Source: an uncultured Chloroflexia bacterium (lineage in GTDB: Bacteria; Chloroflexota; Chloroflexia; QHBQ01; JADMIH01). From it: 64,000 nt of DNA. Shown here piece after piece: positions 6,219-62,317 of this stretch. Numbering within the stretch: the first letter of the stretch is position 1; each line of letters opens with the position of its first letter. The position numbers and the translations under genes were made by a program. The notes under the pieces were generated by a model that saw nothing but the letters and a program-made list of their open reading frames with translations, ran no database searches and was not told where the DNA came from. The stretch covers positions 130,688 through 194,687 of the forward strand of contig CAWEQU010000003.1 in assembly GCA_963811305.1 (NCBI GenBank), given 5' to 3'.

Positions 6219-6279
6219 GGACGATAGACGATAGACGATAGACGATAGACGATAACTTTGAACCTTGAACTTTGAACCC
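6219..6279. repeat. Word arrays: (GACGATA)x5 then (TTGAACC)x3
   Basis: Direct reading ggacgatagacgatagacgatagacgatagacgataactttgaaccttgaactttgaaccc, in the divergent promoter region between sufB and the GT1 gene. Confidence 0.85.
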
Positions 6280-6281
6280 TT

Positions 6282-7379
6282 ATGAACATCGCTCTCGCGC
6301 ATGACGACTTGATACAATATGGTGGGGCCGAGCGTGTGGTGGATGTGCTACACGACATCTATCCCGACGCGCCTTTGTACACCGCTGTGTATGCGAAGGG
6401 GCAGATGCCTGCGCATTACAGGCGATGGAAGATTTACACGTCGTTTATGCAGAAGCTGCCTGGCATAGCTAAATTCCACCAATTGTACCTCCCCCTCTAC
6501 CCTACAGCCTTCGAGACGTTTGACCTGTCGGGGTACGATGTTGTGTTGAGCAGCAGCAGCCGCTTCGCCAAGGGGGTTATCACGGAGGCTGACGCCCTTC
6601 ACGTTTGCTATTGCCATGCGCCGATGCGCTTCGCGTGGAACTACCACAGCTACATGGAGGGGGAGCGCGCCGCGAGCAAAGCGCGCTTCGTCTTGCCCCT
6701 GGTGATGAACTATGTTAGACTCTGGGACGAGGCTTCGGCAGGGCGGGTGGACGCCTATATAGCCAACTCGCTTGTCACCGCTCGCCGCATACGCAAGCGC
6801 TACAGGCGTCAGGCTACGGTCATAAATCCGCCCGTGAATACGAGTTTGTATAAGCCCAGGTCAGACGGTAGCGTGGAAGATTACTTCCTGATTGTGTCGC
6901 GCCTGATACCGTACAAGCGGATAGACCTCGCGGTGGACGCCTTCAGCAAGCTGGGTCTGCCTCTGAAGATTGTGGGGAAGGGACGGCAGGAAGCGGAGTT
7001 GCGGGCAAGAGCCGGGTCCAATATAGAGTTCGTAGGCTCGGTATCGGACGAGAGGCTCAAGGCTCTGTACGCGGGGTGCAAAGCGTTCATCTTTCCGGGG
7101 GAGGAGGACTTCGGCATATCGCCCCTGGAGGCGCAAGCGTCAGGCCGTCCAGTGATAGCATACGGCGCGGGCGGCGCGCTCGAAACGGTTGTGCCTGGCG
7201 TGACCGGCGCGTTCTTCAGCGAGCAGACACCGGACGCCCTGGCCGAGACCGCCAGCCGATTCAACCCGCGACTGTACGATCCATCCGCCATACGCCGCCA
7301 CGCCGAAGGCTTTGATACAGAGGTGTTCAAGCGGAAAATAGCGGAATTTGTTGGACGGACGACGGACGATGAAACGTGA
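6282..7379 (+). CDS. Glycosyltransferase family 1 (GT4-type)
   Basis: C-terminal EEDFGISPLEAQASGRPVIAYGAGG is the GT1 E-x7-E motif region. The last 6 codons (TTDDET*) are encoded by a word array. Confidence 0.8.
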   Translation: MNIALAHDDLIQYGGAERVVDVLHDIYPDAPLYTAVYAKGQMPAHYRRWKIYTSFMQKLPGIAKFHQLYLPLYPTAFETFDLSGYDVVLSSSSRFAKGVITEADALHVCYCHAPMRFAWNYHSYMEGERAASKARFVLPLVMNYVRLWDEASAGRVDAYIANSLVTARRIRKRYRRQATVINPPVNTSLYKPRSDGSVEDYFLIVSRLIPYKRIDLAVDAFSKLGLPLKIVGKGRQEAELRARAGSNIEFVGSVSDERLKALYAGCKAFIFPGEEDFGISPLEAQASGRPVIAYGAGGALETVVPGVTGAFFSEQTPDALAETASRFNPRLYDPSAIRRHAEGFDTEVFKRKIAEFVGRTTDDET

Positions 7380-7476
7380 AACGTGAAACGTGATGACGGA
7401 GTACATACTTCCATAAAATAAACTCTGCGAACTCTGCGTCTCTGCGGTGAATTTACTTTCTGTCGTCCGTCGTCAA
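7354..7476. repeat. Word arrays (GACGGAC, GAAACGT) plus a conserved ~80-bp composite element (copy 1)
   Basis: Region gagtacatacttccataaaataaactctgcgaactctgcgtctctgcggtgaatttactttctgtcgtccgtcgtc is near-identical to 57690-57773 and ends with the inverted word TCGTCCGTCGTC. It lies in the 5' leader of the wzz-like gene. Confidence 0.8.
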
Positions 7477-7488
7477 AAAAGGAGAATC

Positions 7489-8229
7489 ATGGAGTTACGG
7501 CAATACTGGAACGTCATAATGAGAAGGCGGTGGCTGGTGCTGGCTATCGCGGTGCTGGCTACGTTGTTCAGCGCCTTTTCGTTCTTCACTTCGGTCAGGC
7601 AATACAAGGCTGAGACTATCTTTACGGTCAGACAGCAGAATACCCCAACCGATCCGACGAAGATATTCACATTCAATGACTACTACAACTGGATCGCTTC
7701 AGAGTACCTCGTTGACGACTATACGCAGATCGTAGAGAGCGATGCGTTTGGGCAGAGCGTACTTGACACCATCAAGAAAGAGGTGCCCGCGGGCAACATA
7801 GTAGTCAGCGACACCACGAAGCTCATGGTCGAAGTTGATAGGATGAGGCCTAAGAACGTTAGCGACGTCGTAGGCGCGGAGCGCCGTCACAGGGAGTTGC
7901 GCGTCTTCGCTGAAACTTCAAGCAGGGACCTCACTAAAGCTATATTGGAAGGATCGAGCATCGTGCTCACCGAAGGTCTGATGAAAGTCTATAGAGGCGA
8001 GAATACGGACAGACCGATTATCGCGCAGATAAACACCGTGACTAATGACGACATGACCTCAAGCGTGTCTAAGGACATTACCAACGCGATAATCCGCGTA
8101 ATCATGGGCCTGGTCGCCGCCCTTGCTATAGCCTTCTTGCTTGAATACCTCGATAATAGTGTCCGGGACGAAAGGGACGCTCGTAAAGTGCTCGATCTTC
8201 CTGTGATTGGGGCGATACCGAGGACGTAG
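7489..8229 (+). CDS. Polysaccharide co-polymerase (Wzz/CpsC-like chain-length determinant), paralogue 1
   Basis: Strong RBS aaaggagaa. N-terminal TM, and C-terminal TM plus LEYLDNSVRDERDARKVLDLPVIGAIPR tail typical of CpsC/Wzz PCP-2b proteins. Confidence 0.65.
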   Translation: MELRQYWNVIMRRRWLVLAIAVLATLFSAFSFFTSVRQYKAETIFTVRQQNTPTDPTKIFTFNDYYNWIASEYLVDDYTQIVESDAFGQSVLDTIKKEVPAGNIVVSDTTKLMVEVDRMRPKNVSDVVGAERRHRELRVFAETSSRDLTKAILEGSSIVLTEGLMKVYRGENTDRPIIAQINTVTNDDMTSSVSKDITNAIIRVIMGLVAALAIAFLLEYLDNSVRDERDARKVLDLPVIGAIPRT

Positions 8230-8270
8230 TTCAAGGTTCAAAGTTCAAGGTTCAAGGCTCAAGGCTCGAG
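8230..8270. repeat. (TTCAAGG)n word array, inverted relative to 8722-8770
   Basis: gttcaaggttcaaagttcaaggttcaaggctcaaggctcgagg. Confidence 0.85.
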
Positions 8271-8280
8271 GAGTGAGCAC

Positions 8281-8754
8281 ATGACGAGTGCCCGGCAGTT
8301 TGAGGAACTTGAAGTCTGGAAGAAGGCACGATTAGTAACAAGAGAGATATATGCTGTAAGCTCGAAGGGCGCATTTTCACGGAACTTCGGCCTTTGTGAT
8401 CAAATTCAGCGGGCAGCTGTATCCGTAATGTCCAATATTGCAGAAGGATTTGAGCGAGAAGGCAACAAAGAGTTTCGACAGTTTCTTGCCCTAGCAAAAG
8501 GCTCCGCAGGTGAAATTCGCTCCCAGCTATATGTCGCACTGGACGCGGGCTTCCTTCAACAAAGTGAGTTTCAGCAGCTATATAACTCTGTAATCGAATT
8601 GAGCCGTCTCATAGCAGGTTTGATGCGTTACCTCAATGCCTCTGATTACAAAGGAAACAAATTTAAGGAAGCTTCAGGTCCAGAGTACCACACAGAAGGT
8701 CCCGACAGTCAGCTAGAGCGTCTTGAACCTCGAACCTCGAACTTTGAACCTTGA
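8281..8754 (+). CDS. Four-helix-bundle protein (TIGR02436; former 23S rRNA intervening-sequence protein family)
   Basis: EELEVWKKARLVTREIYAV...FGLCDQIQRAAVSVMSNIAEGFEREGNKEFRQFLALAKGSAGEIRSQL matches the family consensus. The C-terminal tail is encoded by the TTGAACC array. Confidence 0.7.
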   Translation: MTSARQFEELEVWKKARLVTREIYAVSSKGAFSRNFGLCDQIQRAAVSVMSNIAEGFEREGNKEFRQFLALAKGSAGEIRSQLYVALDAGFLQQSEFQQLYNSVIELSRLIAGLMRYLNASDYKGNKFKEASGPEYHTEGPDSQLERLEPRTSNFEP

Positions 8755-8770
8755 ACTTTGAACTTTGAAC
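8722..8770. repeat. (TTGAACC/TCGAACC)n word array
   Basis: cttgaacctcgaacctcgaactttgaaccttgaactttgaactttgaac. Confidence 0.85.
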
Positions 8771-9475
8771 AAACACATGCAGCTTGACCTGAGACAAATA
8801 TGGAGCGGCCTGCGTAAGCGGTGGTGGCTGGCGTTGTTGGTGATGCTGTCGGCTGCCGCCGTCGCGTACCTTTACACCAATGCACAGCCGCGTGTGTATC
8901 AGGCGCAGGTGACACTTGTGGCAAAGCCTGTACCTCCTGATAATGGTCTCATAGAGGCGATCAAGAAAACTATGAGCACCTACGCCCAGGAGCTGGGGAG
9001 CAAGAGCCTCTGGACGTCTGTGGTAGATGGTAATTTGATGCGCACGGTGGACCTGAGCGCATTGTCCGGCCAGATAAAGGTGCAGCCACGTCCCGACCAA
9101 AACTCACTCGTTATGACGGTGGATAATCAAGACAGTGTGTTGGCCGCACAGATAGCAGAGGCTATCTCGCAGGCGTTCGTGGAGCGCCAGACCGCAGAGA
9201 ACCAGGCTCTGGCGAGTGGTAATAAGGTCGTGTGGGTGATAGCCCAGGCTGCCGAAGTGCCCTCTCAGCCCTACCAGCCTCGCCCGCTCTTGTATGCGGG
9301 TGCGGCGGCTTTATTTGGCCTTATACTCGGCCTTCTATTGGCAATTGGGCTTGAGTTGCTGGACACGACGATTAAGACTCCTGCGGATATCAAGCAGTAT
9401 ACGGAGCTTAACACGCTGGGGATAATTCCACGTGCTAGCAAGGACGAAGGACGAAGGACGAAGGACGACGGATAG
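8765..9475 (+). CDS. Polysaccharide co-polymerase (Wzz/CpsC-like), paralogue 2
   Basis: N-terminal TM (WWLALLVMLSAAAVAYLY), and C-terminal TM plus LELLDTTIKTPADIKQYTELNTLGIIPR. The final residues (KDEGRRTKDDG*) are encoded by the (GGACGAA)n array. Confidence 0.6.
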   Translation: MNKHMQLDLRQIWSGLRKRWWLALLVMLSAAAVAYLYTNAQPRVYQAQVTLVAKPVPPDNGLIEAIKKTMSTYAQELGSKSLWTSVVDGNLMRTVDLSALSGQIKVQPRPDQNSLVMTVDNQDSVLAAQIAEAISQAFVERQTAENQALASGNKVVWVIAQAAEVPSQPYQPRPLLYAGAAALFGLILGLLLAIGLELLDTTIKTPADIKQYTELNTLGIIPRASKDEGRRTKDDG

Positions 9476-9528: not shown

Positions 9529-10233
9529 TTGGCAAGACGAGTCAAAACTAAGGAAGAGAGCAGCGCGGGCCTGGTTGCCCTTACGGAGCCGAGGTCGGCG
9601 GCGGCGGAGGCGTTTCGCGCTTTGCGGACCAATATTCAGTTCGCCAGCCCCGATAAGCCTGTGCATACCATACTGGCGACCTCTACCAGTCCCGATGACG
9701 GCAAATCCACGACCATCGCCAATCTTGCGATAACGTTCGCCGCCGCCGGGTCGCCTACGATATTGGTAGACGCCGATTTGCGCCGCCCGCACCTGCACAA
9801 GCTCTTCGGCCTCTCCAACGAATCGGGCCTTACTACTCTCGTGACGGAGATGGCGCGCAAGGATGGGGGCCAGGACGTTGACCTGCCTTTGCAGGATACG
9901 GAAGTGCCTAATCTGCAGGTGCTGACGAGTGGACCTGTGCCGCCTAACCCCGCCGAGATATTGGCTTCGCAGCGCATGGCCGATATACTGGCCCTCCTCC
10001 GTAACAAAGCTGAATACGTGCTGATAGATACCCCTCCCGTGATCGCCGTGACGGATGCAGCCGTGCTGGCTCCCCGCGTAGATGGAGTCTTCCTGGTGTT
10101 AAATGCAGGTAAGACGCGACGCGACCTTGCCTCTAAAGCACGCGACATCCTCCGGCAAGTAAACGCCAACCTCCTGGGCGTAGTGCTGAACAACGCCAAG
10201 CTCGATAAGAGCGCGTACGAGTATTATGGCTAG
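9529..10233 (+). CDS. BY-kinase (CpsD/CapB-type tyrosine-protein kinase); putative TTG start
   Basis: Walker A PDDGKSTT, Walker A' VDADLRRP, Walker B VLIDTPP. Lies downstream of the CpsC-like genes. Confidence 0.8.
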   Translation: MARRVKTKEESSAGLVALTEPRSAAAEAFRALRTNIQFASPDKPVHTILATSTSPDDGKSTTIANLAITFAAAGSPTILVDADLRRPHLHKLFGLSNESGLTTLVTEMARKDGGQDVDLPLQDTEVPNLQVLTSGPVPPNPAEILASQRMADILALLRNKAEYVLIDTPPVIAVTDAAVLAPRVDGVFLVLNAGKTRRDLASKARDILRQVNANLLGVVLNNAKLDKSAYEYYG

Positions 10234-10312
10234 GAATCAGGAGTCAGGAATCAGTAGAATATGAGTCCTAATCCCTGATTCCTGACTCCTGACCCCTAAT
10301 CCCTGACCCCTA
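10234..10312. repeat. Inverted word arrays forming a hairpin (GAATCAG/GAGTCAG with CTGATTC/CTGACCC)
   Basis: ggaatcaggagtcaggaatcag...aatccctgattcctgactcctgacccctaatccctgacccc, between the kinase and the phosphatase. Confidence 0.85.
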
Positions 10313-10314
10313 AA

Positions 10315-14263: not shown

Positions 14264-14351
14264 GGACGATAGACGATAGACGATAGACGATAGACGATGG
14301 ACGATGGACGATGGACGATGGACGATGGACGATGGACGATGGACGATAGAC
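14264..14351. repeat. (GACGATA)x4 plus (GGACGAT)x7 word array
   Basis: Direct reading. Confidence 0.9.
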
Positions 14352-14511
14352 CATGAAGTCAATAAAAGGATAGCATATTGTGGGGTGGGTGGCGAGTTCT
14401 AGCCGATAAATGAAAGAGGTGTTGGGCGCGCCCAACACCTCTTTCATATGTAGATACAGAGTGTAGGTACAGGAATTGGACTTTCGCTTACGGGTTTGCA
14501 CACGCCTGCTG

Positions 14512-16704
14512 TTAGCTTTTGTATGTTAGCAGCCTCATCCCGTTGAGGGTTACCAGGAGGGAGACGCCCATGTCGGCCAGGATCGCGCCCCATAAGGGGA
14601 GCATACCGAGGCTTGCGAGAATGAGGGCTATTACTTTCGTCGCCAGCGATACGCCTATATTGGCCTTGATGACGCCTAATGCCTTGCGTGAGAGGGTTAT
14701 CGCGTAGGGGAGGCGCGAGAGGTCGTCGCTCATCAGGGCGACCTCAGCGACTTCCAATGCGGCATCTGTGCCTGCGATGCCCATGGCGATGCCCACGTCG
14801 GCGGTGGCGAGTGCAGGCGCGTCGTTCACGCCGTCGCCTACCATTGCTATGGGGCCATGCTCCGCGGCGATGCGCCGGACTGCTTCTACCTTCTCGGCTG
14901 GGAGAAGCTCAGCGTGGCAGCTATCTACATTGAGCTGGCGTGCTATCGCCTCGGCTGTTCGGCGGTTGTCGCCTGTGAGCATGGCTATATGGCGGATACC
15001 TGATTGGCGTAGCTCCTCAATCGCGGCCTGGGCGTTGGACCTGGACCTGTCGGCGAGGGCTATTATTCCCTGCACGCCGTCAGTAGTGCCCACAAGCACT
15101 GCGGTATTTCCCTCTTCATTGAGAGCGTCGAGCGTGGAAGCTATGCCATTTAGCTCGATGTGATGGTCCCTGAAGAGGCGCGGGCTGCCTACATAGATTG
15201 TCTCGCCACCTATGTCGGCGCGCGCACCCAGGCCGGGCAGGGCGGTGAAGCCAGTTGCCTCTAGCGCAGATGGGTTCTTGTGAAGATCGCGCGCCGCGTG
15301 TACGACGGCTCTCGCCAGGGGGTGCTCTGAGCGGGATTCAGCCGCAGCAGCCATTGTGAGCAACCTATCCTCGTCGCCGTCAGCAGCGCGAACGGCGACT
15401 ACCTGCGGGCGACCCTCGGTGAGAGTGCCGGTCTTGTCGAAGGCGACGACGCGCACCTTGCCCAGCGCCTCCAACGCCTCCCCGCCCTTGATAAGGACGC
15501 CATGCCTGGTAGCGGCACCGATTGCGGAGACGATGCTGACGGGCGTCGAGATGACCAGCGCGCACGGGCACGCTACCACCAGCAGCACCAGCGCGCGGTA
15601 ACCCCACTCCGCGAAGGGCTGTGCTAACAAGAGCGGGGGTATCAGCGCCACGAGGGCCGCTCCCGCTATGACCAGGGGCGTGTAAATCGCTGAGAAGCGG
15701 TCCACGAACTGCTGGGAGGGTGCGCGGCGGGCCTGGGCCTCCTCGACCATGCCGATGATGCGGGCAAGGGTGGTATCACCGGCGGCGCTTGTGCTTCGCA
15801 TGGTAAGCACGCCAGGCCCATTGATGGTCCCGGCGAAGATTTGCGATCCAGGTTCTACGTCAACCGGCACGCTTTCGCCCGTTATGGGGGACTGGTCGAT
15901 TGAAGATATACCCTGCAAGACGATGCCATCGAGGGGAACACGTTCGCCCGGACCAACCAGCACGGTCTCTCCAGGCAGTACTTCCTCTACGGAGACGCGC
16001 ACCTCACGCATGATGGGTAAGCCTGAGCTATTGTCGACGCGGCGCACAAGCGCGGTGTCCGGGGAGAGGTCCATTAGCGCGCGTATCGCGCCGCGCGTCT
16101 TTTGGAGGGTATACGCTTGCAGGGTGCCGCCGAAGGCGAAGAGGAGGACTACCGTAGCGGCTTCGGCCCAGTCGCCAAGCGCAGCCGCGCCTATCGCCGC
16201 CACGGACATGAGCAAGTTCATATCGGCCCGCCCGACGCGCAACGCGAGCAGACCCGCTCTTGCGAAGCCCAGACCGCTTATCACGATTGCCACTGCGTAG
16301 AGGGAATTGACAAACCAGGGAGCGACTCCGAAGAGCGATAGGGCGAAAGCAGCCAGCGCGAATAAGGTTCCAACGCCTGTGGTCAACACCCGGCGTTCTC
16401 GCCGCCAGAAGGGGACTTCTATCAGATGAGCACGCGCCTGGAGTGGAGTAGCTCTATAGCCAGCCTCGTTTACCTTTCGCTCGATGGTTGTTTCGATGCT
16501 GTTGAGCTTGCCTTTTGTGGGAACGACGGATAGCCTTGCAGCGCCGAAGTTCACCCGTGCTGTTTCCACGCCGGGTAGCGCGCCCACCGCCTTCTCTATG
16601 GTGCGCGCGCAGTCCCCGCAGTCCATCCCTTCGATGGTGAACTCAAGGAGGGCATTCGATTTTGGATTTTGGATTTTGGATTTTGGATTTTCTGTGGTAA
16701 TCAT
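14512..16704 (-). CDS. Heavy-metal (Zn/Cd/Pb-type) translocating P1B-ATPase
   Basis: N-terminal HMA GMDCGDC, CPCALVISTP transmembrane motif (ZntA/CadA type), DKTGTLT phosphorylation site and GDGVNDAPAL. The first 16 codons (MITTENPKSKIQNPKS) are encoded by the TTTTGGA array. Confidence 0.85.
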   Translation of the reverse strand: MITTENPKSKIQNPKSNALLEFTIEGMDCGDCARTIEKAVGALPGVETARVNFGAARLSVVPTKGKLNSIETTIERKVNEAGYRATPLQARAHLIEVPFWRRERRVLTTGVGTLFALAAFALSLFGVAPWFVNSLYAVAIVISGLGFARAGLLALRVGRADMNLLMSVAAIGAAALGDWAEAATVVLLFAFGGTLQAYTLQKTRGAIRALMDLSPDTALVRRVDNSSGLPIMREVRVSVEEVLPGETVLVGPGERVPLDGIVLQGISSIDQSPITGESVPVDVEPGSQIFAGTINGPGVLTMRSTSAAGDTTLARIIGMVEEAQARRAPSQQFVDRFSAIYTPLVIAGAALVALIPPLLLAQPFAEWGYRALVLLVVACPCALVISTPVSIVSAIGAATRHGVLIKGGEALEALGKVRVVAFDKTGTLTEGRPQVVAVRAADGDEDRLLTMAAAAESRSEHPLARAVVHAARDLHKNPSALEATGFTALPGLGARADIGGETIYVGSPRLFRDHHIELNGIASTLDALNEEGNTAVLVGTTDGVQGIIALADRSRSNAQAAIEELRQSGIRHIAMLTGDNRRTAEAIARQLNVDSCHAELLPAEKVEAVRRIAAEHGPIAMVGDGVNDAPALATADVGIAMGIAGTDAALEVAEVALMSDDLSRLPYAITLSRKALGVIKANIGVSLATKVIALILASLGMLPLWGAILADMGVSLLVTLNGMRLLTYKS

Positions 16705-17320: not shown

Positions 17321-17747
17321 GTTGGGCGCAGGGAAATGATGGTTGGATGTGCAAAAACCATTGACACCACCCTATGGCGGGTGTAACATCCGCACACCTC
17401 AAGGCCGGGCACGTAACTCGGCGGCGTACGGAAATATGAAGCGAAGCAAGGGTTATTGGAAAGTGGAAAGGGTTGCCCCTATGCGTACCGACTGGATATT
17501 GTTTACATTGCTGGGTCTGCTATGGCTAGGGGCCGGGGGCATACACCTGAGATTGCCACGCCGTCAAAAGGACCAATCGCCGGAGATAGAGGAGTGAAAC
17601 GTGACGACGGACGATAGACGATAGACGATAGACGATAGACGATAATGTCTGATGCGTGATACGTAAGTCTATTGCCTAGCGCATAAACTCTTATAAAATC
17701 TTAGCGTTCTTGGTTATCTTTGCGTCTTGGCGTTTAATAATCACGCA

Positions 17748-19059: not shown

Positions 19060-19137
19060 GGACGAAAGATGAAGGACGATAGACGATAGACGATAGACGA
19101 TAGACGATAGACGACGGACGACGGACGACGGACGATT
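19060..19137. repeat. (GACGATA)n plus (GACGGAC)n word array upstream of murA
   Basis: Direct reading. Confidence 0.9.
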
Positions 19138-19178
19138 GATAATGAGTACTGCTTCTGCCTTCTGCCTTCTGTCTTCTA

Positions 19179-22100: not shown

Positions 22101-23765
22101 ATAAAGAGAGATTTCGCTGCCTGCCCATGCGTGGCCGTGCTCGCCAGTGGCCCAGAAGGAGGGTCCACCTCTGTCGTCGATAGCTACCAGGTTATGGTCA
22201 GCAACCGCCAGCAATTGCCAGTCGGTCACAATCCCCTCTTCTGCCAGGGTAGAAGCTACGAGCAGATACGTGCCTGCCGGAAGCTCGTCCGGCACGGGGG
22301 CCGCGCCTTCTGATTTGCCCGCATCTGGCAGGCTCGAACTGAACGTCTGGACCGGCGCTAATCCAGCGGGTAGCCCGCCGGGGAGGGAGACCGGCCAGGG
22401 CCTCTTCTGCGCGCCCAGGGCAGATATGTACTCGGCGGGGAGGTTGTACAGAGAGAACGTCACGATAGGGCCGGAATTCGCATCTTCATCAGGGATGTAA
22501 CCCTGCGCCGGGACTTCACGCGCTTCATCTGCACTTACTTCATACTTTACGCTTCCTGACTGGCTCATGGGAACTACGCTGACACGCCCATCCAACAAGC
22601 GAACCCTCGAAGTTGGGAGCGTGCTGGTGTAGGCGAACTCATGGGGCTGCCCCAGGGTATCGCCACCCTGGGTGCGTGAGGTAGCTGCTGTGCGTAGATA
22701 GACCGTACCTTCGGGCATCGGTACGTCGGGCGACACAATGACTTTGCGCCCATCTGGATCCCAGTAAAGGGTTGCGGGCAAAGCCTCGCTTGACCCGCTC
22801 GTGTGGAGCGACACAGCCGTTTGTTCTCTGTTCATGGGGGCTTCAAAATTGAGGCTGAGTGTGGCTGTGGGGGATAGAGTAGCGCCTGGATTGGTGTCCG
22901 GCATGACGCCATATGGCTCTTTGGTGCGGAAGGACCAGGTGATGGGCTGCCGGAGGGGCGTGCCGGTGAGGGAGCGCGCAGTGCTGCTGAGTAGCAGGGT
23001 GTAAGTGATGCCCCTGAGCAGGCCCGGCTCGTGCGGGGAGAAGAGCAACTCGTTGTCGGCTGCCCACTGGAACGCCCCGGCTGCGGGTGGGTCTATGCCC
23101 CAGGCGTTTTCGACCGAGGCCCGGTCCATAGGCTGGTCGAAGCGGATGCTCATGGGCGCGCCGAGGGGAACGTCGTGAGCATCGCCGGTGGGCGAGAGGC
23201 GCACCGGATTGGGTATGGCTACCGGACCGCCAACCCCGTATTTGCCCGATGATATGGCCGCTAGAGGAGTGGAGTTGACGGCAATGGGGGCTTCTTCGCC
23301 CGGCACGAGGAAGCCAAGCTCTTTGTAACCCCCAATGGGAGGGAGTATGTTCAGCCAGTAGGCCAGGCTGATCATGGCAAAGATGGAGGTGGCTGCCGCA
23401 AATGCGACGCGCTTCGGAGAAGGATCGAACCGCAAGAGCAGACCTGCCGCAAGCAAGCTCCACTTTCTAAATGCGGAGTGCGGAGTGCGGAGTGCGGAAT
23501 TGGGACGGGTTGTGGCTTGGATTGATCTGGTAGGCGCTGGCTCGTCGTGCTTGACGGAGCTTAGGACGGCGTTTCGCACGCGGTCAGAGGGGCGAGGCTC
23601 GGAGGCTGCTTCCTTGAGAAGCACGTCTGTCTGGCGTGCGCGGGCCAGCCATGCGGCGCACTCGTGGCAGCCCTCTACGTGGTCGAGCAACTCGCGGCGC
23701 TGGCGGGGCGTGACCTCGCCATCCATGTAGCGCGATATTAGCTGCCGGTAGCGCGCGCAGGTCAC
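19179..23765 (-). CDS. Giant membrane anti-sigma factor (1528 aa): N-terminal zf-HC2 anti-sigma domain, TM, tandem SbsA-type Ig-like domains, MG-like repeats and a C-terminal alpha-2-macroglobulin TED-like region
   Basis: CARYRQLISRYMDGEV…HVEGCHECAAWL is a zf-HC2 anti-sigma motif. GTG start overlaps the sigma gene stop. The C-terminal LEQIYSAQNSDGSWS…TAHILLAL resembles an A2M thiol-ester domain, but no CxEQ thioester motif is evident. The GCGGAGT x3 array is in-frame in the cytoplasmic linker. Confidence 0.55.
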   Translation of the reverse strand: MTCARYRQLISRYMDGEVTPRQRRELLDHVEGCHECAAWLARARQTDVLLKEAASEPRPSDRVRNAVLSSVKHDEPAPTRSIQATTRPNSALRTPHSAFRKWSLLAAGLLLRFDPSPKRVAFAAATSIFAMISLAYWLNILPPIGGYKELGFLVPGEEAPIAVNSTPLAAISSGKYGVGGPVAIPNPVRLSPTGDAHDVPLGAPMSIRFDQPMDRASVENAWGIDPPAAGAFQWAADNELLFSPHEPGLLRGITYTLLLSSTARSLTGTPLRQPITWSFRTKEPYGVMPDTNPGATLSPTATLSLNFEAPMNREQTAVSLHTSGSSEALPATLYWDPDGRKVIVSPDVPMPEGTVYLRTAATSRTQGGDTLGQPHEFAYTSTLPTSRVRLLDGRVSVVPMSQSGSVKYEVSADEAREVPAQGYIPDEDANSGPIVTFSLYNLPAEYISALGAQKRPWPVSLPGGLPAGLAPVQTFSSSLPDAGKSEGAAPVPDELPAGTYLLVASTLAEEGIVTDWQLLAVADHNLVAIDDRGGPSFWATGEHGHAWAGSEISLYSPEGSLLQKGLTDERGLWSPDILMEKATLAIARDGAGHLAAMTLSPGTAPKTQSRDTLAATLRTDRAEYYPGQTVNFRVLLHPTTDAIPNTPLTEREVEVSLLTPPGNVLRSLTLKPDDAGGASGLFNLPTDLRPGEYTLLARAGGEERRFPLYVKQPKSDTLGVYIVPGAPEDATPRVITRTVSILGPNGGAAPGSALTMTLGIMGDSWVSSPVTATTNSEGKATVVMTLPSWIASYNDPSLYLATTATLNGMAGSDSQYLDLTSFGAARAGMRQLVSPELNLAAVARPAKDGSINVRIVTLNGSGVDGDVLLTAYPPAGEQQTWSLDLSSAGDLTVPLPRHYAGGRLRLLRAGVAGSREMALMPQVVGGIELQMSDPLPALPNAPVVTLLSLTDRERQGVAGVASIWFRRVAGSDIGDAMGESRGWEPDVTLSASGTVSATLQAPGTPGLWYMLSEAVTGDGGYVQSWSVLRVLPGPSIQTPSTIQAQSMEPQTVSIVVHNPTDQSASVVIRMDGEDAVRTLSSDSQTLSLAPGGSRRVDWRLQASRPGAHLATFSFAPGQYGAGAWSLPIVASKSARTNTTYVSGVMSGERSVGVLVPSGLSAGGVELQVRASSSLLPALASIATNIASDSPSKHERAMASAARLSSSASVAWAYTQAGAQIPDNLSPTAEEVASLLEQIYSAQNSDGSWSAEDAVAEAPLGSITGTAHILLALRHYSLTSPERDRESDPYPHVDVAVIERGLAYLGAELARPVRDDEALDKRAYGLYALSSYGVLQPELARPYIAYASPGAGLSYAGQAWLALALMQSGSTQDGLVLVGRLLDDRMKITAEAAAPVLYALIVADKAATQAEPVYQVREPSAYASTAPTYVRLLMESRQGIGWAGYGATSDAMWSLSRYAAQSSEKALKGLPTLTLNDRPVQVSSDGSNGSTVSLIISGSELHAGTNWLRLKAPTPGQPLYYSLTLTATR

Positions 23766-31172: not shown

Positions 31173-31236
31173 TGTGGACGATAGACGATAGACGATAGAC
31201 GACTAGATTTTACCGCAGAGACGCAGAGTTCGCAGA
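31173..31236. repeat. (GACGATA)n array plus inverted partial copy of the composite element (CCGCAGAGACGCAGAGTTCGCAGAG)
   Basis: Reverse complement of the ctctgcgaactctgcgtctctgcgg core seen at 7420-7450 and 57705-57730. Confidence 0.75.
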
Positions 31237-31297
31237 GATTTATTGAGGATTCACGCATCACGTTTCACGTCACGTATGACGAATGGAGGAAGGGGAG

Positions 31298-31963
31298 ATG
31301 AAGATAGTTATCCTGGGTAGCGGGCGCGTGGGAGCGCGGTTGGCTCAGCTGATGGAGGCTGATGGTCACGATGTCAATATTATTGACGGCGACAAGGCCT
31401 CTTTCGACCGGCTGCCCGACAGCTTCAAGGGGAGGACGATACTGGGCACAGGCATAGACGTAGACGTGCTCAAGTCCGCCGGTATCGAGAACGCCGATGC
31501 TTTTGCCGCCGTTACGAACTTCGACAATACCAATATCATGGCGTGCCAGGTTGCTAAGGAGATATTTGGCGTCAGGAAGGTGCTGGCGCGCATTTACGAT
31601 CCTGGGCGCGAGCAGCTTTATCATGAGCTTGGGCTGGAGACGATCTGCCCCACTACCCTCATATCTACCACCTCCCGCGACATATTGCTGGCGGCAGATG
31701 GGGTGGAGATATTACAGATGCCGCCACACATAGGGGGTCCCAAGCTGAATGTAACTCCCATCATGTCCTCCGCTACTACCCCGCTATCGAGCGATGAGCA
31801 TGAAGGGCACAGGCCCATGTCTCAACCTGCTCGAACGCAGGCTGATAGCGATAACCGCCCTGGACAGCAAGCATCGCAGGGTCTCCAGCCCAATGGTGGA
31901 GATGAGCAAGGGGAGCGCTCGCCCAATAATGGGCGTGGGTTGAGGGGGATATTCAAGCATTAG
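31298..31963 (+). CDS. TrkA-N (NAD-binding) domain protein with low-complexity C-terminal extension
   Basis: MKIVILGSGRVGARLAQLMEADGHDVNIIDGD is the Rossmann GxGxxG motif. RBS ggaggaagggg. Confidence 0.65.
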   Translation: MKIVILGSGRVGARLAQLMEADGHDVNIIDGDKASFDRLPDSFKGRTILGTGIDVDVLKSAGIENADAFAAVTNFDNTNIMACQVAKEIFGVRKVLARIYDPGREQLYHELGLETICPTTLISTTSRDILLAADGVEILQMPPHIGGPKLNVTPIMSSATTPLSSDEHEGHRPMSQPARTQADSDNRPGQQASQGLQPNGGDEQGERSPNNGRGLRGIFKH

Positions 31964-32048
31964 GAATTAGGAATCAGGAGTCAGGAATGAGTAGATGGAC
32001 TCGGCCACTAATTGCTACTAACTCCTGGCTCCTGATTTCTGATTCCTG
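31962..32048. repeat. Inverted GAATCAG/CTGATTC word arrays forming a hairpin
   Basis: ggaattaggaatcaggagtcaggaatgag…actcctggctcctgatttctgattcctgg. Confidence 0.85.
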
Positions 32049-39293: not shown

Positions 39294-39367
39294 GTGGACG
39301 ATGGACGATGGACGATAGACGATGGACGATGGACGATGGACGGTGAAGTGAAACGTGAAACGTGAGG
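39294..39367. repeat. (GGACGAT)n plus (GAAACGT)n word array upstream of the NTase-like gene
   Basis: Direct reading. Confidence 0.9.
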
Positions 39368-39891: not shown

Positions 39892-40031
39892 CCGCTGTAC
39901 GGCACGGTCGCAGTTGCGACCCCCGACGTTCGCGTTGAAGTGCAGGTGGAGCTTTAGACTGGACGATAGACGATAGACGATAGACGATAGACGACGGAGG
40001 GCAGCAGGTTGGGGTAAGGTTTGGGTAGGTT

Positions 40032-47742: not shown

Positions 47743-48713
47743 TGAACGACGCATTGCCACTCCTTTGTTACTTTGAAGGTAAGGTTATGCCTCTCAGCGA
47801 GGCTAAAGTGGGCATACTTACCCACGCCCTGAGCTACGGAACCGGATGTTTCGAGGGCATACGAGCCTATTACAATAAAGAGCAGGACCAGCTCTACGGC
47901 TTTCGCGTGCGCGAGCATTACGAGCGCTTGCAGCAATCAAGCCGCGTCCTGCTTATGGACCTCCCCCATTCGCCGGAGCAACTCGTAAGTATCACTAACG
48001 ACCTGCTGAGACGCAGTGGCATCCGCCAGGACGCATATATGCGTCCTATGGTTTACAAGGCTGACGAAGTCATAGGAGTCAGGCTGCACAATCTCCGCAC
48101 CGAGATGTATGTCACGGTACAGCCCTTTGGCAATTACATAGACATAGACCGCGCTCTCGAAGTGGGCGTATCTTCCTGGAAGCGTATTGACGACAATATG
48201 ATACCGGCCCGCGCCAAGATAACGGGTACATACGTCAACTCAGCCTTCGCCAAGAGCGAAGCCAACATGAATGGCTTCGATGAGGCGATTATGCTAGACC
48301 ACGCTGGGCACGTTTCGGAAGGCTCCGCCGAGAACTTATTCATGATACGTAACGGTGTAGCCTACACACCGCCCGTCACCGAGAACATACTTGAGGGGAT
48401 CACCCGCCTCACGATTATGACCTTGCTGAGCGAAGAGCTGCATATCCCGCTTGTCGAGCGCGTCATAGACCGTACGGAGCTATATGTCTGCGACGAGCTA
48501 ATACTGTGCGGCACGGGCGCGCAGATAGCCCCCGTAGGCTCGGTAGACCACCGCCCCGTCGGCAATGGCGGCGTGGGTAAGATAGGCCATGCGCTCCAGG
48601 AGCTTTATTTTGATGTGGTACGTGGCAATGTACCAAAGTACAAAGAGTGGTGCAGCCCCGTTTATGCAGAAGCTCGCCGCCCCGCCGACGTGCGAATGGC
48701 AGTAGCCTCATAA
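47743..48713 (+). CDS. ilvE: Branched-chain amino acid aminotransferase (class IV PLP enzyme)
   Basis: Full-length BCAT similarity incl. EGSAENLF and catalytic Lys region. Confidence 0.8.
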
Positions 48714-48770
48714 TTTTGGATTTTGGATTTTCGATTTCGATAGTTGATCCAAAATCCAAAATCCAAAATC
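48714..48770. repeat. Inverted TTTTGGA/TCCAAAA word arrays (hairpin) between ilvE and the bPH gene
   Basis: ttttggattttggattttcgatttcgatagttgatccaaaatccaaaatccaaaatc. Confidence 0.85.
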
Positions 48771-53705: not shown

Positions 53706-53780
53706 TAAGAAGTTAGAAGTTAGAGATTAGAAGCTAGAAGCTGATGATCAGATTTCTAACTTCTAACTTCTGATTTCTAC
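53706..53780. repeat. Inverted AGAAGTT/AACTTCT word arrays (hairpin) between yajQ and rimO
   Basis: agaagttagaagttagagattagaagctagaagctgatgatcagatttctaacttctaacttctgatttctac. Confidence 0.85.
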
Positions 53781-54295: not shown

Positions 54296-54375
54296 TGAAG
54301 GAAAAGGGAAAAAGGATAAATTACAACCATAAATGTATTTGCATTTATCCTTTATCCCTTTTCCTTTTTCCTTTA
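54296..54375. repeat. Inverted AAAGGGA/AAAAGGA word arrays (hairpin)
   Basis: gaaggaaaagggaaaaaggataaat…atttatcctttatcccttttcctttttcctt. Confidence 0.8.
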
Positions 54376-57801: not shown

Positions 57802-58053
57802 ATGCCTGTAGAGCCGATGGATATACGCATCGGGGATGTGTATACCTTGAGGAAACCGCACCCTTGCGGGAGCTATGATTGGCGCGTGGTGCGCGTGGGA
57901 GGCGACATCGGTATGCGCTGTGTCAAGTGCGACCACAAAGTGCTCCTCCCGCGCTCGGAGTTCGAGCGTCGGAGTCAAGAAATTGGTGGAGCGTACAGAG
58001 ACCGAAAATGCGATATAATTCATATTACGTATTGCGTGATGCGTGATGCGTGA
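57802..58053 (+). CDS. DUF951-family small protein
   Basis: IRIGDVYTLRKPHPCGSYDWRVVRVGGDIGMRCVKCDHKVLLPRSEFERR fits the DUF951 Zn-ribbon-like pattern. The tail is encoded by the (TGCGTGA)n array. Confidence 0.55.
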   Translation: MPVEPMDIRIGDVYTLRKPHPCGSYDWRVVRVGGDIGMRCVKCDHKVLLPRSEFERRSQEIGGAYRDRKCDIIHITYCVMRDA

Positions 58054-58110
58054 TGCGTAATAGCCTGTAAGCAATCAGATGCCCTACGAACTATTTCAAT
58101 ACGAGTATTT

Positions 58111-59655: not shown

Positions 59656-59727
59656 CAGGCGAGATTATCTCTTGCGCTTCACCATAAGATTTGGGAACGC
59701 GGCCTCTAGCATTGGGTCGCGTTCCAT

Positions 59728-60081
59728 CTATTCGAGGTAGCCTCTTTCCCTACCCCACATGAGCCACGCCTTTGCTGCACCTTCAACACTATCCTCGGGT
59801 TGAGCAGGGTTTTCACCAGTGATAGCGTTAAGTGCCCAAAACCAGTGGTCAGGCTCTTGTCCCAGCTTGCGCAAAATTAGGGGGACCACCTGCCGCCCCA
59901 TACCTATGATCCTCTGGTAGGAAGGATGAACGCACATATCATCCAGCGATGACATGAAGAAGGTCTCGCTCTTCCATTTTTCGGCATGGCTCTGAAACTC
60001 CTTTTCCAATTCGGAAGGGGTATATAGAAAGAGTTCTGCCTCGCCTATAGAGATACCTTTTACTCTTGTTACGGCTTGCAT
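59728..60081 (-). CDS. Hypothetical protein
   Basis: ORF only. No recognisable motif. Relatively AT-rich. Confidence 0.3.
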   Translation of the reverse strand: MQAVTRVKGISIGEAELFLYTPSELEKEFQSHAEKWKSETFFMSSLDDMCVHPSYQRIIGMGRQVVPLILRKLGQEPDHWFWALNAITGENPAQPEDSVEGAAKAWLMWGRERGYLE

Positions 60082-60208
60082 ATCTGTATTGTAACATATC
60101 ATTCTATAGTGCTAGAGCCCTAATCTAGGCTGTTATTCTAATCCAGCCTGTTATGATATAACTAGGGTATATTTCAGTCAAACCTGAGAGACTCACCGAG
60201 GAGTTTTC

Positions 60209-62317
60209 ATGTCAACACCCAGCACTCAGTGGCAGCCCCTGCCTGCTCCTAGCGACCCACGCAATCCCTCCACAGATTGGTGGCTCGCTATATTGGAGCG
60301 TGCCCTCATCTCGCGCGCGATGGACGACCTCGAGGTCACGAAGGAGTACCGACCCAACCCTGACAAGCCGCACGAAGGGAAGCTCAAGTTTCAGTTCGGG
60401 GCGAAGGGGCACGAAATCCCACAGCTTATAGCCGCTGCGCTCTTGAGTCACCCCCACGACGGTGCGACCGTCTATTATCGCTCGCGCCCTCTGATGCTGG
60501 GCGTGGGGCTGACTCCGTTCGAGGCATTCGCCAGTAATATGCACAAGCTTGAGGGCGTGTCGGGTGGGCGTGACATAGGCGTGGTCTTCAATCACAAGCA
60601 GCCAGGCGGCGTGACAGTCCTCCCGGCATCGGGCGACGTTGGCGCGCAGTTCACGCCCGCCATAGGGTGGGCGCAGGCCGTGCAGTACCGCGCCACCGAG
60701 CTTGGGCAGGAGGAGTACGCGGGCGCCGTCGCGCTGGCTCACGCAGGCGACGGCGCTACCTCCACCAACGGCTTCTGGAGCGCCATCAACATAGCAGCCC
60801 CTCGCCGTCTCCCCTACGTGATGCTGATTGAAGACAATCGCTATGCCTTATCGGTGCCCTGGCGCTATCAGAGCGGCTCCCCATCCATCGTAGACAACCT
60901 CCGCAACTTCCAGGACCTCAATATGCAGTCCGTCGAGGGCGGCGACATCCTGGCTCTTTATCAGGCCCTGTACAGCGCCATCATGGGAGCGAGGCAGGGT
61001 GCTGGCGCGCAGTTAGTCCACGTCAAAGTGCCCCGCCTAACAGGCCACAACTGGCAGGACCCCGCCGCCTACAAGAGCGCCGAGGAGAAAGAGGAAGACG
61101 CTCGACGCGATCCCCTCACACGCCTCATCGCTCACCTGCAAGAGGAGCATGGCGTCTCCGCCGCGCAGATAGACGCACTGCGCGAGCAAGCAACCGAGTT
61201 CGCAAGGGAGCAGGCAGAAGCAGCCTGGGAGCGCGGCTCCGATCCGCCCGGCGACGACGCTACCACTCACCTATTCTCCCCTCAGCAATCCAAACTCCAA
61301 AATCCAAAATCCGAAATCGTCACGGAGGGTCCCAGGCTGACTATGCAGCAGGCCATCAAGCAGACCCTTGAGGACGAGATGGCCCACGACAATACCATCC
61401 TGGTCTTCGGGGAGGACGTGGGGGCGTTCGGCGGCGTGCATAGGGTGACGGATGGGTTGCAGGCACGCTTCGGCGAGGCGCGCTGCTTCGACACGAGCCT
61501 GAACGAGGAGGGCATTGTAGGTCGCTCTGTGGGCATGGCGCTCAACGGACTTAGACCCGTGCCCGAAATCCAGTTCCGTAAGTATGCAGACCCCGCGCAT
61601 GAGCAGATCACCGACGCGGGGAGCATGAGGTGGCGCACGCATGGGCGCTTCGGCGGCCCAATCGTGCTGCGCATCCCCGTAGGCTACCAGCTTATGGGAG
61701 GGGACCCCTGGCACGCGGTGTGTGGGGAGGCTGTGTTCGCCCACCTCCCCGGCTGGCAGATAGCCTACCCGTCGAACGCGGCGGACGCAGTGGGCCTACT
61801 CCGAACCGCGCTACGGGGAGATGATCCTGTGGCCTTCCTGGAGCATCGCCTCCTCTATCGCTACCGCGAGGCCAACCGCCCTTATCCCGGCGCAGATTAC
61901 GTAGTGCCCTTTGGTCAAGCCGCTCAGGTCCGCGAGGGGGACGATGCGCTCATAGTCACCTGGGGCGATACCGTTTACCGCTCGCTGGAGGCGGCGAACG
62001 TCGTGGCGCAAAGCACGGGCGCGCAGACCCGCATCCTCGACCTGAGGACGGTGGTCCCCTGGGACCATGATAAGGTTATGCAGGCGGTGAAGGATATAGG
62101 CCGCGTGCTGGTCGTGCATGAGGATACGATAACGTGCGGCTTCGGTGCGGAGATAGCTGCCCAGGTCGCTGATGAAGCCTTCGTCTATCTCGACGCGCCG
62201 GTGAAGCGTGTGGCGTGCGCCGACGTCCCCTCCCCTACCCACGACAACCTCTTCGAGGCCGTCATGCCCACCGCCCGCAAGATACAGGCGGCGCTGGAGG
62301 AGTTGGTTAAGTTCTAA
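60209..62317 (+). CDS. Fused 2-oxoacid dehydrogenase E1 component (TPP-dependent alpha subunit plus beta subunit in one 702-aa chain); linker encoded by a word array
   Basis: N-terminal E1-alpha TPP fold (…GDGATSTNGFWSAINIA…), C-terminal E1-beta (…ILVFGEDVGAFGGVHRVTDGLQARFG…RCFDTSLNEEGIVG…). The linker …QQSKLQNPKSEIV… is encoded by caaactccaaaatccaaaatccgaaatc (61288-61319). Confidence 0.75.
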   Translation: MSTPSTQWQPLPAPSDPRNPSTDWWLAILERALISRAMDDLEVTKEYRPNPDKPHEGKLKFQFGAKGHEIPQLIAAALLSHPHDGATVYYRSRPLMLGVGLTPFEAFASNMHKLEGVSGGRDIGVVFNHKQPGGVTVLPASGDVGAQFTPAIGWAQAVQYRATELGQEEYAGAVALAHAGDGATSTNGFWSAINIAAPRRLPYVMLIEDNRYALSVPWRYQSGSPSIVDNLRNFQDLNMQSVEGGDILALYQALYSAIMGARQGAGAQLVHVKVPRLTGHNWQDPAAYKSAEEKEEDARRDPLTRLIAHLQEEHGVSAAQIDALREQATEFAREQAEAAWERGSDPPGDDATTHLFSPQQSKLQNPKSEIVTEGPRLTMQQAIKQTLEDEMAHDNTILVFGEDVGAFGGVHRVTDGLQARFGEARCFDTSLNEEGIVGRSVGMALNGLRPVPEIQFRKYADPAHEQITDAGSMRWRTHGRFGGPIVLRIPVGYQLMGGDPWHAVCGEAVFAHLPGWQIAYPSNAADAVGLLRTALRGDDPVAFLEHRLLYRYREANRPYPGADYVVPFGQAAQVREGDDALIVTWGDTVYRSLEAANVVAQSTGAQTRILDLRTVVPWDHDKVMQAVKDIGRVLVVHEDTITCGFGAEIAAQVADEAFVYLDAPVKRVACADVPSPTHDNLFEAVMPTARKIQAALEELVKF

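Follow-up and report, generated by a model that had tools for sequence, protein, structure and literature searches.

The 64,000-nt stretch analysed here (hereafter the window), from an uncultured Chloroflexia bacterium (assembly GCA_963811305.1, contig CAWEQU010000003.1, positions 130,688 to 194,687), is interspersed with tandem arrays of 7-nt units, or words, which stand either alone as direct arrays or beside an inverted array with which they form a hairpin. Our analysis confirms that this heptamer array system is real, and it is a dense new case of an already described class of bacterial heptanucleotide long simple sequence repeats (SSRs). We consider it probable that the arrays, which are of the type of the STRR (short tandemly repeated repetitive) sequences of cyanobacteria, are fast-evolving repeat DNA that is made and remodelled at the DNA level and that accumulates at every site able to tolerate it.

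Tandem Repeats Finder returned approximately 45 period-7 rows at approximately 29 separate loci, spanning positions 57 to 61318 of the window, which bears out the estimate of at least 25 loci in 64 kb made in a first-pass annotation of this DNA. A mismatch-tolerant scan (score of at least 10) yielded 30 period-7 arrays that together comprise 997 nt, or 1.56% of the window. The period is strict, in that 19 perfect arrays of three or more copies were found at period 7 and none at periods 4, 5, 6 or 8 to 12, and a second-order Markov model predicts 0.0 perfect period-7 arrays in the window. The words that had been named are all present (GACGATA/GGACGAT/GGACGAA, TTGAACC, GAAACGT, GGAATCA/GGAGTCA, TTTTGGA, GCGGAGT, AGAAGTT, TGCGTGA, AAGGGAA-type units and the octamer CGCCAAGA), and different words are indeed concatenated at single loci, where they follow recurring orders such as GACGA-type, then GAAACGT, then TGCGTGA. 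GACGATA/GACGATG types occupy at least 10 loci, TTTTGGA five, and TTGAACC, GAAACGT and AGAAGTT two each. Word families are separated by single substitutions, as in GACGA followed by TA, TG, CG, AG or AA, and a few words (AACTCTGCG, CGCAGAGA and CGCCAAGA) are 8 or 9 nt long rather than 7. When rotations and strands of a unit are counted as one word, 34 pairs of arrays share a word compared to 0.37 expected if all 1172 rotation/strand classes are equally likely, an approximately 90-fold excess.

The same density of arrays is found in related genomes. Syntenic loci from four relatives (L104, L105, L107 and L108) were fetched by protein identity rather than repeat content, and come from independent short-read assemblies (JGI, ENA and NCBI). 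SufB of L104 and L105 is 96% and 92% identical to that of the window, respectively, L107 shares approximately 88% nucleotide identity over 21 kb, and L108 (GCA_035274425.1; DATEOC01, 'Chloroflexia bacterium') encodes a RimO orthologue with 94% identity. The closest similarities of SufB and RimO of the window are to proteins from uncultured 'Chloroflexia bacterium' MAGs, and RimO has a 100% identical counterpart on a 216-kb NCBI/ENA contig. These loci contain 40 period-7 arrays in 79.5 kb, or 0.50 per kb, compared to 0.47 per kb in the window. This equal density indicates that the arrays extend beyond the window and do not arise from assembly, against two of the objections that the first-pass annotation had raised to itself, and it supports the modular, genome-wide vocabulary that had been proposed. 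At approximately one array per 2 kb, the system extrapolates to thousands of arrays per genome, with near relatives available for comparison.

The proposal that the system is lineage-specific holds for part of the vocabulary. The secondary words GAAACGT, TGCGTGA, GCGGAGT, CTGCCTT, TTTTGGA, AAGGACG and TTGAACC are common to the related Chloroflexia genomes. By contrast, a search of 185,579 species genomes for three consecutive copies of GACGATA found at least 103 stretches; among the matches listed, several Chloroflexota and a Gemmatimonadales metagenome-assembled genome (MAG) have many loci per genome, and scattered matches occur in Bacteroidota, Acidobacteriota, Armatimonadota, Fibrobacterota, Marinomonas and others, covering at least 10 other phyla. 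Period 7 is dominant in these loci as well. Because the 103 loci L001 to L103 were chosen for this triplet, counts of GACGATA are biased in them, while statistics on polarity, period and other words are unaffected. Viral contigs gave only two matches, indicating that the arrays are not a phage-borne feature.

Using the databases' own gene calls for L104 to L108, we placed 30 of the 40 arrays in intergenic DNA, which makes up only 16% of the sequence (P=3e-16), and the remaining 10 in linkers or termini of coding sequences. By spacer type, arrays are present in 16 of the 45 between co-directional genes, 4 of the 12 between convergent genes and 2 of the 13 between divergent genes. The placement at gene boundaries that had been noted is therefore correct for most arrays and incomplete for the several that lie inside open reading frames (ORFs). 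These in-frame arrays are always at tolerated places, in the window within RimO, a fused E1 dehydrogenase, an anti-sigma factor, a P-type ATPase and the C-terminus of a Wzz protein. A 7-nt repeat is read through all three frames and encodes a 7-residue repeat, and many relatives display this signature in their RimO linkers, where each uses a different word (DDRLRTTDDRL, QKAEGRRQKAEG, IRNPQSAIRN and QNSKFKIQNS). Outside the linker RimO is 80-97% identical among relatives; the linker itself is hypervariable and 7-residue-periodic. Set beside the contingency SSRs of phase variation, whose unit number switches the frame or promoter spacing of particular (surface) genes, the arrays do change in unit steps; those inside ORFs, however, preserve the frame, and arrays are found beside housekeeping genes and beside the polysaccharide operon equally often. 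GACGATA direct arrays are sense to approximately half of their adjacent genes and antisense to the rest. In practical terms, heptamer arrays mislead naive ORF calling, in which ORFs are lengthened on the stop-free strand, genes are fused and 7-residue-periodic linkers are added.

The five inverted pairs that had been singled out as long hairpins all fold as such, with free energies of -38.5, -49.2, -25.9, -26.0 and -32.6 kcal/mol, z-scores of -6.5, -7.9, -6.0, -4.3 and -6.1, and stems of 17-27 bp, and none of 200 shuffles was equally stable. Each is flanked by co-directional genes, the next start codon lying 0-30 nt away, and several take up the entire spacer from a stop codon to the following start codon. 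Inverted pairs also have a marked polarity. With arms paired one to one, the G-rich arm is 5' in 80 cases and the C-rich arm in 3, with 4 ties, and in loci not chosen by their repeats the counts are 12 and 0. Since G-arm-first polarity is identical when read from either strand, neither the direction of transcription nor that of replication explains it. A separate observation concerns the 12 solitary GACGAYR arrays of the window (158-57687), all of which are G-rich on the plus strand whatever the direction of the neighbouring gene (12:0, P=5e-4). A replication-strand rule was considered and does not hold outside the window, where orientation does not follow local GC skew (43 against 37) and where pairs within a locus are concordant in 11 and discordant in 13. 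With no link to GC skew and no agreement within loci, we reject the replication-strand hypothesis as a general rule.

Comparison with relatives shows how the arrays change. Differences between the window and L107 are mostly whole units, with +7 nt at 48712, 48750 and 58033 and 7 nt at 54300 and 57739, such that the slippage suggested in the first-pass annotation is directly visible as single-unit steps. In the N-terminus of the E1 dehydrogenase, L107 differs from the window by +21 nt at 60212, which corresponds to three in-frame units of CAGCACC. Both arms of the TTTTGGA hairpin gain a unit together, from approximately 3+3 units in the window to 4+4 in L108, and a metagenome scan for alleles of this hairpin (48713) found none. 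Variant units lie in blocks, for example five GACGATA followed by seven GACGATG at 14265-14347. Beyond such steps, whole words are replaced at conserved sites. Between RodZ and YajQ, where the flanks are conserved, the window has an AAGGAAA-type hairpin and L107 and L108 have a TGAATTY-type hairpin; between ParA and CpsB, GGAATCA-type hairpins in the window and L104 correspond to a TTTTGGA hairpin in L105; and the spacer between Wzz1 and Wzz2 carries three different words in three genomes. Likewise, the GGACGAT word that encodes SSIVHRPSS in the RimO linker of the window is replaced in the 94%-identical DATEOC orthologue by a GCGGAGT word that encodes LHTPHSAL. Together, these replacements indicate that the occupancy of a site and its type persist while the word turns over. 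Across the orthologous spacers of the window, L104, L105, L107 and L108, position and single or paired type are kept, and copy number and sequence vary. Heptamer arrays are also evident hypervariable markers with which strains could be typed among Chloroflexia MAGs.

Larger composite modules are also reused. Some are nested, an octamer block or inner arrays being enclosed by an outer GACGA-type stem. Two sites 50 kb apart (7432-7474 and 57713-57755) share a 43-nt block (CTCTGCGTCTCTGCGGTGAATTTACTTTCTGTCGTCC...) with 98% identity, and this block recurs in L107 and in L108, where the copy lies in a different gene context. The composite modules that contain it (7409-7474, 57690-57765 and their relatives in L107 and L108) vary in length and have unrelated flanks, and no target-site duplication was seen at them. 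At a smaller scale, the end variant AAAATCG is common to four separate TTTTGGA loci.

The first-pass annotation had suggested that the arrays function as terminators or attenuators, and our data do not support this role. No run of U residues follows any of the five hairpins, and a terminator scan of positions 1-20 kb made no call at any array. We further reasoned that a hairpin selected as RNA should tolerate G-U pairs and should fold better in the sense than in the antisense strand; across 15 intercistronic hairpins, the difference between sense and antisense free energy ranged from +9.2 to -9.5 kcal/mol without bias. The lack of U-tails, the co-directional placement and the absence of a sense-strand advantage together indicate that the hairpins are not canonical terminators, and intrinsic terminators in particular were rejected given that no U-run is present and that the hairpins lie between co-directional genes and not at the ends of transcription units. 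A Shine-Dalgarno motif is missing from 4 of 5 genes abutted by an array compared to 27 of 69 others, a trend that is not significant (P=0.15). The hairpins might nevertheless have effects on mRNA stability like those of repetitive extragenic palindromic (REP) elements, their 17-27 bp stems might be processed by RNase III, and stop and start codons might be coupled across the stem base.

Unit-step change, a strict period, variants in blocks, concerted arms, the occupation of permissive sites and the lack of an RNA-strand signature all fit remodelling at the DNA level, the account that we regard as probable. Replication slippage on direct arrays would be its engine, and the complementarity of inverted pairs would be maintained by intramolecular template switching from one arm to the other. 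The simplest addition, occasional ectopic copying from array to array, could explain why a small vocabulary is reused and why words are replaced, and arrays would be restricted by purifying selection to sites that a frame-cycling insert does not harm. Intercistronic stem-loops would be transcribed and, as for REP elements, could exert secondary effects on mRNA stability, processing and cistron coupling that would not be the reason for the arrays. Several observations weigh against this account. The recurrence of the same few words at unrelated loci (34 versus 0.37 pairs) is not explained by pure local slippage. The AAAATCG end variant at four TTTTGGA loci, the 98%-identical 43-nt block 50 kb apart, the wholesale swapping of unrelated words at one spacer between approximately 90%-identical genomes, the presence of GACGATA at many loci in other phyla and the near-absolute precedence of the G-rich arm (80:3) are further difficulties. 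Moreover, the assembly pairs L105/L106 and L108/L109 are identical and display no within-pair array polymorphism, and the persistence of hairpins in position and their tight fit from stop to start codon are also expected from selection on RNA function. Such selection is the basis of an alternative that we judge unlikely, a broadened form of the role proposed in the first-pass annotation, namely that the arrays are cis-acting RNA elements, with hairpins serving as mRNA stabilisers, RNase III sites, attenuators or means of translational coupling and direct arrays serving as leaders. Consistent with it, hairpins persist at the ParA-CpsB, Wzz1-Wzz2, YajQ-RimO and aminotransferase-bPH spacers in three or four genomes as their words change, units are gained jointly on both arms, the 17-27 bp stems are strong, several spacer-filling hairpins place stop and start codons at the stem base without a Shine-Dalgarno motif, and co-directional spacers (16/45) carry arrays more often than divergent ones (2/13). 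Transcript stability or translational coupling has also been proposed for cyanobacterial STRR hairpins (PMC2670836). The missing U-tails and terminator calls (scan of 1-20 kb) and the lack of a sense-strand advantage argue otherwise, as do the occurrence of the same words unpaired, in both orientations and in coding linkers without RNA structure, and a Shine-Dalgarno depletion that falls short of significance.

A dedicated and possibly horizontally transferred activity is decidedly unlikely in our view, whether it is a non-autonomous mobile element resembling MITEs (miniature transposable elements with inverted repeats) or REPINs or an addition of repeats at DNA 3' ends that leaves inverted pairs as junction scars. 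The 80:3 polarity has the geometry of G-rich strand synthesis outward from two facing 3' ends, and the 'loops' between arms can be as short as 5 nt or as long as a whole gene, with PF05635 genes bracketed in both the window and L059. Arrays also lie exactly where the gene content of relatives differs, such as the spacer between sufB and a glycosyltransferase gene, where L104 has an additional gene. Further points are a restricted vocabulary, a word present across many phyla, a fixed period of 7 and the dispersal of composite modules in contexts that differ by genome. Set against these points, no target-site duplications or conserved ends were found, the flanks of same-word arrays are unrelated, no candidate enzyme emerged, the sole transposase among the window ORFs scanned being an ordinary DDE insertion sequence, slippage alone accounts for unit-step changes, and arrays are nearly absent from viral contigs (two matches). 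The specific form of this idea, in which a horizontally spread activity extends the DNA 3' ends of breaks or insertion junctions by G-rich 7-nt repeats, as a bacterial analogue of telomere-like healing with inverted pairs as head-to-head junctions, has in our estimation only a small chance of being correct; if true, it would explain the polarity, the fixed period, the cross-phylum vocabulary, the replacement of whole words and the genes caught between arms. We assign a very small chance to arrays being multivalent targets of a protein that binds specific DNA or RNA sequences, such as an S1/Csp/CsrA-like factor, a nucleoid protein or a regulator, as proposed for the TAACTGA repeats of Beggiatoaceae (PMC4679880). 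A small conserved vocabulary common to related genomes, the GGA contained in many words and the many arrays that end a few nucleotides from start codons agree with binding sites, but more than 12 unrelated words would require many such proteins, unrelated words are swapped at the same site, GACGATA orientation is mixed and arrays are tolerated within proteins. Finally, an assembly or sequencing artefact has next to no probability: four genes of the window (those for the MFS transporter, EPSP synthase, InhA-like protein and ABC transporter) are indeed split, probably as pseudogenes or by single-base indel errors, but the same arrays occupy the same spacers in independent JGI, ENA and NCBI assemblies. 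Remodelling at the DNA level remains the account we favour, and any mechanism must satisfy the same rules: a strict period of 7, a reusable vocabulary, the occupation of every permissive site, unit changes together with word turnover, concerted arms and polarity. Among these, polarity and whole-word turnover at fixed sites could make the question of origin testable.

Table 1. Heptamer arrays and associated modules in the window. Coordinates count from the first nucleotide of the window; x gives the number of copies.
Position	Strand	Array	Context and counterparts
158..185	+	GGACGAT/GGACGAA, 4 copies	
6220..6278	+	GACGATA x5, then TTGAACC-type x3.6	Ends 3 nt before glycosyltransferase start at 6282; missing from orthologous L105 spacer
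7354..7474	+	Composite module: GACGGAC x2.3, GAAACGT x3.4, conserved core, AACTCTGCG x3 (9-mer), GGTGAATTTACTTTCT, inverted GTCGTCC arm	Near-identical paralogue of 57690-57765
8229..8271	+	GTTCAAG x5.6	5' arm of long-range inverted pair
8722..8770	+	CTTGAAC x7	3' arm of pair with 8229..8271; PF05635 gene 8281-8754 between arms
9440..9468	+	AAGGACG x4	Translated: C-terminal tail of second Wzz gene
10232..10313	+	GGAATCA/GGAGTCA array and inverted CCTGAYY array	Hairpin occupies ParA-like to CpsB spacer
14264..14355	+	GACGATA x5, then GACGATG x7, block-structured, 13 copies	Leader of InhA-like gene (- strand); orthologue in L104 has 4 copies
16658..16691	-	AAAATCC x4.9 (gene sense)	Translated: P-type ATPase N-terminal tail, ENPKSKIQNPKS
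17603..17644	+	GACGATA x5-6, single GAAACGT and TGCGTGA units at flanks	
17687-17738		Inverted copy of CGCCAAGA module	Lies after 17603..17644 array
19060..19177	+	GACGATA x5, GACGACG x3, then CTTCTGC x3.7	
23472..23498	-	CTCCGCA x3.9 (gene sense)	Translated: linker after zf-HC2 domain of anti-sigma protein, NSALRTPHSAF
26497..26530	+	AAAATCC x4.9	Between two ABC-transporter genes
31177..31238	+	GACGATA x4.3, then CGCAGAGA x3	Inverted copy of 7420-7451 block
31959..32048	+	GGAATTA/GGAATCA/GGAGTCA hairpin	Between two TrkA genes
32746..32772	+	GACGAYA x3.7	After TrkA stop; followed by ordinary GC hairpin
36153..36230	+	GACGAAA x3.6, then ACGCCAAG octamers module	
36345..36364	+	GGTTGTC x2.9	
39295..39365	+	GGACGAT x6.9, then GAAACGT x2.6	
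39962..39994	+	GACGATA x4.7	Between convergent genes
48713..48770	+	TTTTGGA / TCCAAAA hairpin	One extra unit per arm in L107 and L108
53267..53362	-	GGACGAT x4.4 and CCTGACC x4.4	Translated: RimO interdomain linker (...GSGVRGQ...SSIVHRPSSV...)
53706..53780	-	AGAAGTT-type hairpin	Occupies YajQ to RimO spacer
54296..54375	-	AAGGAAA/AAGGGAA/AAGGATA hairpin	RodZ to YajQ spacer; TGAATTY-word hairpin instead in L107 and L108
57619..57765	+	Composite module: GACGATA x9.9, conserved core, TCTCTGCG x2, inverted CGTCC arm	L107 counterpart: GACGACG x7 with TATCGTC arm
58033..58058	+	TGCGTGA x3.7	One unit more in L107
61287..61318	+	AAAATCC-type x4.6	Translated: linker of fused E1 alpha/beta dehydrogenase, SKLQNPKSEI

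Several genes next to or between arrays merit description in their own right. A single ORF encodes both the alpha and the beta part of the E1 dehydrogenase, with a heptamer-array linker between them (60209-62317; 1153-3150 in L107), and heptamer arrays may have mediated, or may mark, this gene fusion. The PF05635 gene (23S rRNA intervening-sequence protein; E=1.8e-35) is located in the 'loop' of inverted TTCAAGG/CCTTGAA arrays, whose 43-nt arms show 88% complementarity; in L104 and L105 the orthologous spacer is occupied only by a plain heptamer hairpin. The sole other PF05635-like gene in the fetched loci (L059, 4400-5080, Dehalococcoidia) lies between a GACGATA/CCATAGA array and an inverted GTCTA-type array. 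This bracketed layout is also that of rRNA intervening sequences, in which a long stem accompanies an ORF for the intervening-sequence protein. Four genes are split into adjacent ORFs, encoding EPSP synthase (17748-19041), an InhA-like MAM protein (11801-14250), the second ATP-binding cassette (ABC) transporter (26494-28319) and a major facilitator superfamily (MFS) transporter (58111-59655), and relative to L107 the window carries single-base insertions within coding sequence, for example at 58288, 58722 and 58903. The split genes are probably pseudogenes or the result of indel errors in assembly.

The window also holds dispersed elements of other kinds. The AACTCTGCG and CGCAGAGA words (7421-7456, 31209-31240 and 57712-57740) are part of a wider element, [YCTCTGCG]n-GGTGAAYTTRCT-(CACC[GCAGAGAC]n), which is present on 24 metagenome contigs (L112-L135), where its flanks are unrelated and it often forms a hairpin whose apex carries GGTGAATTTACTCACC. 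A literature text search gave no match to the strings of this octamer/nonamer element, and a string search for GACGATAGACGATA and CTCTGCGTCTCTGCG found no bacterial description. REPIN-like palindromes starting with GTAGGGGCG, with two inverted copies per element, are present at 24470-24600 and 49745-49986, and L107 has an additional 135-nt copy at window position 47613, where the window has none; this palindrome family is thus polymorphic for presence and absence and may be mobile. Two further dispersed hairpin families of approximately 100 nt are common to the window and DATEOC01 loci (45318-45428, 52084-52186, 11150-11245 and 37949-38045), one (...GGATAAAATAAAGGTTCGGCGCAGCCGAACC...) found after gene ends and resembling a bidirectional terminator and the other a GTCATTCTGAGCGAAGCGAAGAATC palindrome. 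A stretch of approximately 900 nt at 36100-36830 has no convincing ORF, a strong G skew and 77-80% identity to two DATEOC01 loci (L030 and L094), and it contains GACGAAA, CGCCAAGA, GGTTGTC and GAGTGCG arrays. Rfam returned no match above gathering threshold anywhere in the window and only a chance microRNA match for 35980-36910; the stretch may encode a non-coding RNA or represent a conserved leader. A DDE transposase gene (PF01609/PF13546; 32820-33848, minus strand), encoding the only transposase among those ORFs of the window that were scanned, adjoins the GACGAYA array and hairpin at 32746-32819. Lastly, a 77-nt tandem repeat with a 36-nt sub-period (589-789) lies inside ORF 340-744, and a 106-nt direct repeat (3791-3896 and 4647-4752, 91% identical) copies the 3' end of sufB approximately 850 nt downstream.

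Bacterial heptanucleotide arrays have a literature that goes back to 1990 and that covers cyanobacteria, Xanthomonas, Nostoc, Beggiatoaceae and Chloroflexus aurantiacus, such that the claim in the first-pass annotation that the window's repeats match no known architecture does not stand. Mazel et al. reportedly defined STRR1-3 in 1990, Jackman and Mulligan are said to have described Anabaena nif intergenic regions in 1995 as 'highly variable but structured' through such repeats, and a 1997 paper by Vioque, listed in PMC2858038, reportedly also deals with cyanobacterial STRR sequences. Two narrower exclusions in the annotation were upheld. The arrays are not a clustered regularly interspaced short palindromic repeat (CRISPR) array, because their units are contiguous 7-mers with no spacers. 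They share intercistronic stem-loops and mosaics of a few motifs in alternating orientation with REP elements and bacterial interspersed mosaic elements (BIMEs), but REP units are 20-40 nt imperfect palindromes with a conserved 5' GTAG that are mobilised by REP-associated tyrosine transposases (RAYTs), and the arms in the window are tandem heptamers without a common GTAG. Of the repeats in the window, the GTAGGGGCG palindromes are more REPIN-like than the heptamer arrays.

Heptamers are the most abundant long SSRs in many bacterial genomes, for which polymerase slippage has been suggested (Mrazek 2007, as cited in PMC4679880 and PMC4692102). The cyanobacterial STRRs are 7-bp repeats that often form hairpins between cistrons, as between hupS and hupL (PMC2670836). 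Like them, the arrays in the window consist of 7-nt units in tandem, use a small number of words, occur at many intergenic loci, form intercistronic hairpins and also lie within tolerated parts of genes, in RNase P RNA for STRRs and in protein linkers and termini here. Unlike them, they reside in a member of the Chloroflexota and not in heterocystous cyanobacteria, have a larger vocabulary and build nested multi-word modules. The STRR1-3 units CCCCAGT, TTGGTCA and CAACAGT occur in none of the 30 window arrays, and with different words and a different host the arrays are not STRRs sensu stricto. TAACTGA direct repeats, found just upstream of start codons in marine Beggiatoaceae, some Cyanobacteria and Bacteroidetes (MacGregor 2015, PMC4679880), resemble the arrays in lying right before start codons, often in place of a Shine-Dalgarno motif (only a trend in the window), and in the presence of one word across distant phyla without a known transfer mechanism. 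They differ in being one word in forward orientation, with 169 direct sets and 1 inverted, where we find many words, frequent inverted pairs and mixed orientation.

Alike in polarity and dynamics are the approximately 180 GGGAATC arrays of Xanthomonas, of which 70-75 per genome are 'always' convergent pairs (Rehm et al. 2015, PMC4692102). Their length varies between species as single or paired type is preserved (PMC4692102), and Nostoc carries comparable GGGGA(T/C)T heptamer repeats (Rehm et al. 2015, PMC4692102). The intergenic position, the change in length with retention of type and the convergent pairs, which equate to the G-arm-first polarity reported here (80:3), are all shared, and the GGAATCA, GGAGTCA and GGGGTCA words of our system are near neighbours of GGGAATC. 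Transcription of both strands would be a further likeness. Unlike these repeats, most of our words (GACGATA, TTGAACC, GAAACGT and AGAAGTT) do not form G-quadruplexes, and many word families coexist where Xanthomonas and Nostoc have one dominant word. Of the same class is Chloroflexus aurantiacus, which with 76 satellites has the most among the bacteria in the table of one survey, 22 of them derived from (GATAGRA)n and scattered genome-wide (Subirana and Messeguer 2019, PMC6749651). This survey covers longer satellites only and gives no account of turnover, gene context, inverted pairs or further words (PMC6749651). The published consensus of its family Fam_1_14_23, GATAGaAgATAGGA, differs from the dominant units in the window. 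The two nonetheless share scattered heptamer arrays, the class Chloroflexia and GC content (56.7% compared to approximately 57% in the window), and GATAGRA is one or two substitutions from GATAGAC/GATGGAC, the window's own GACGATA/GGACGAT words.

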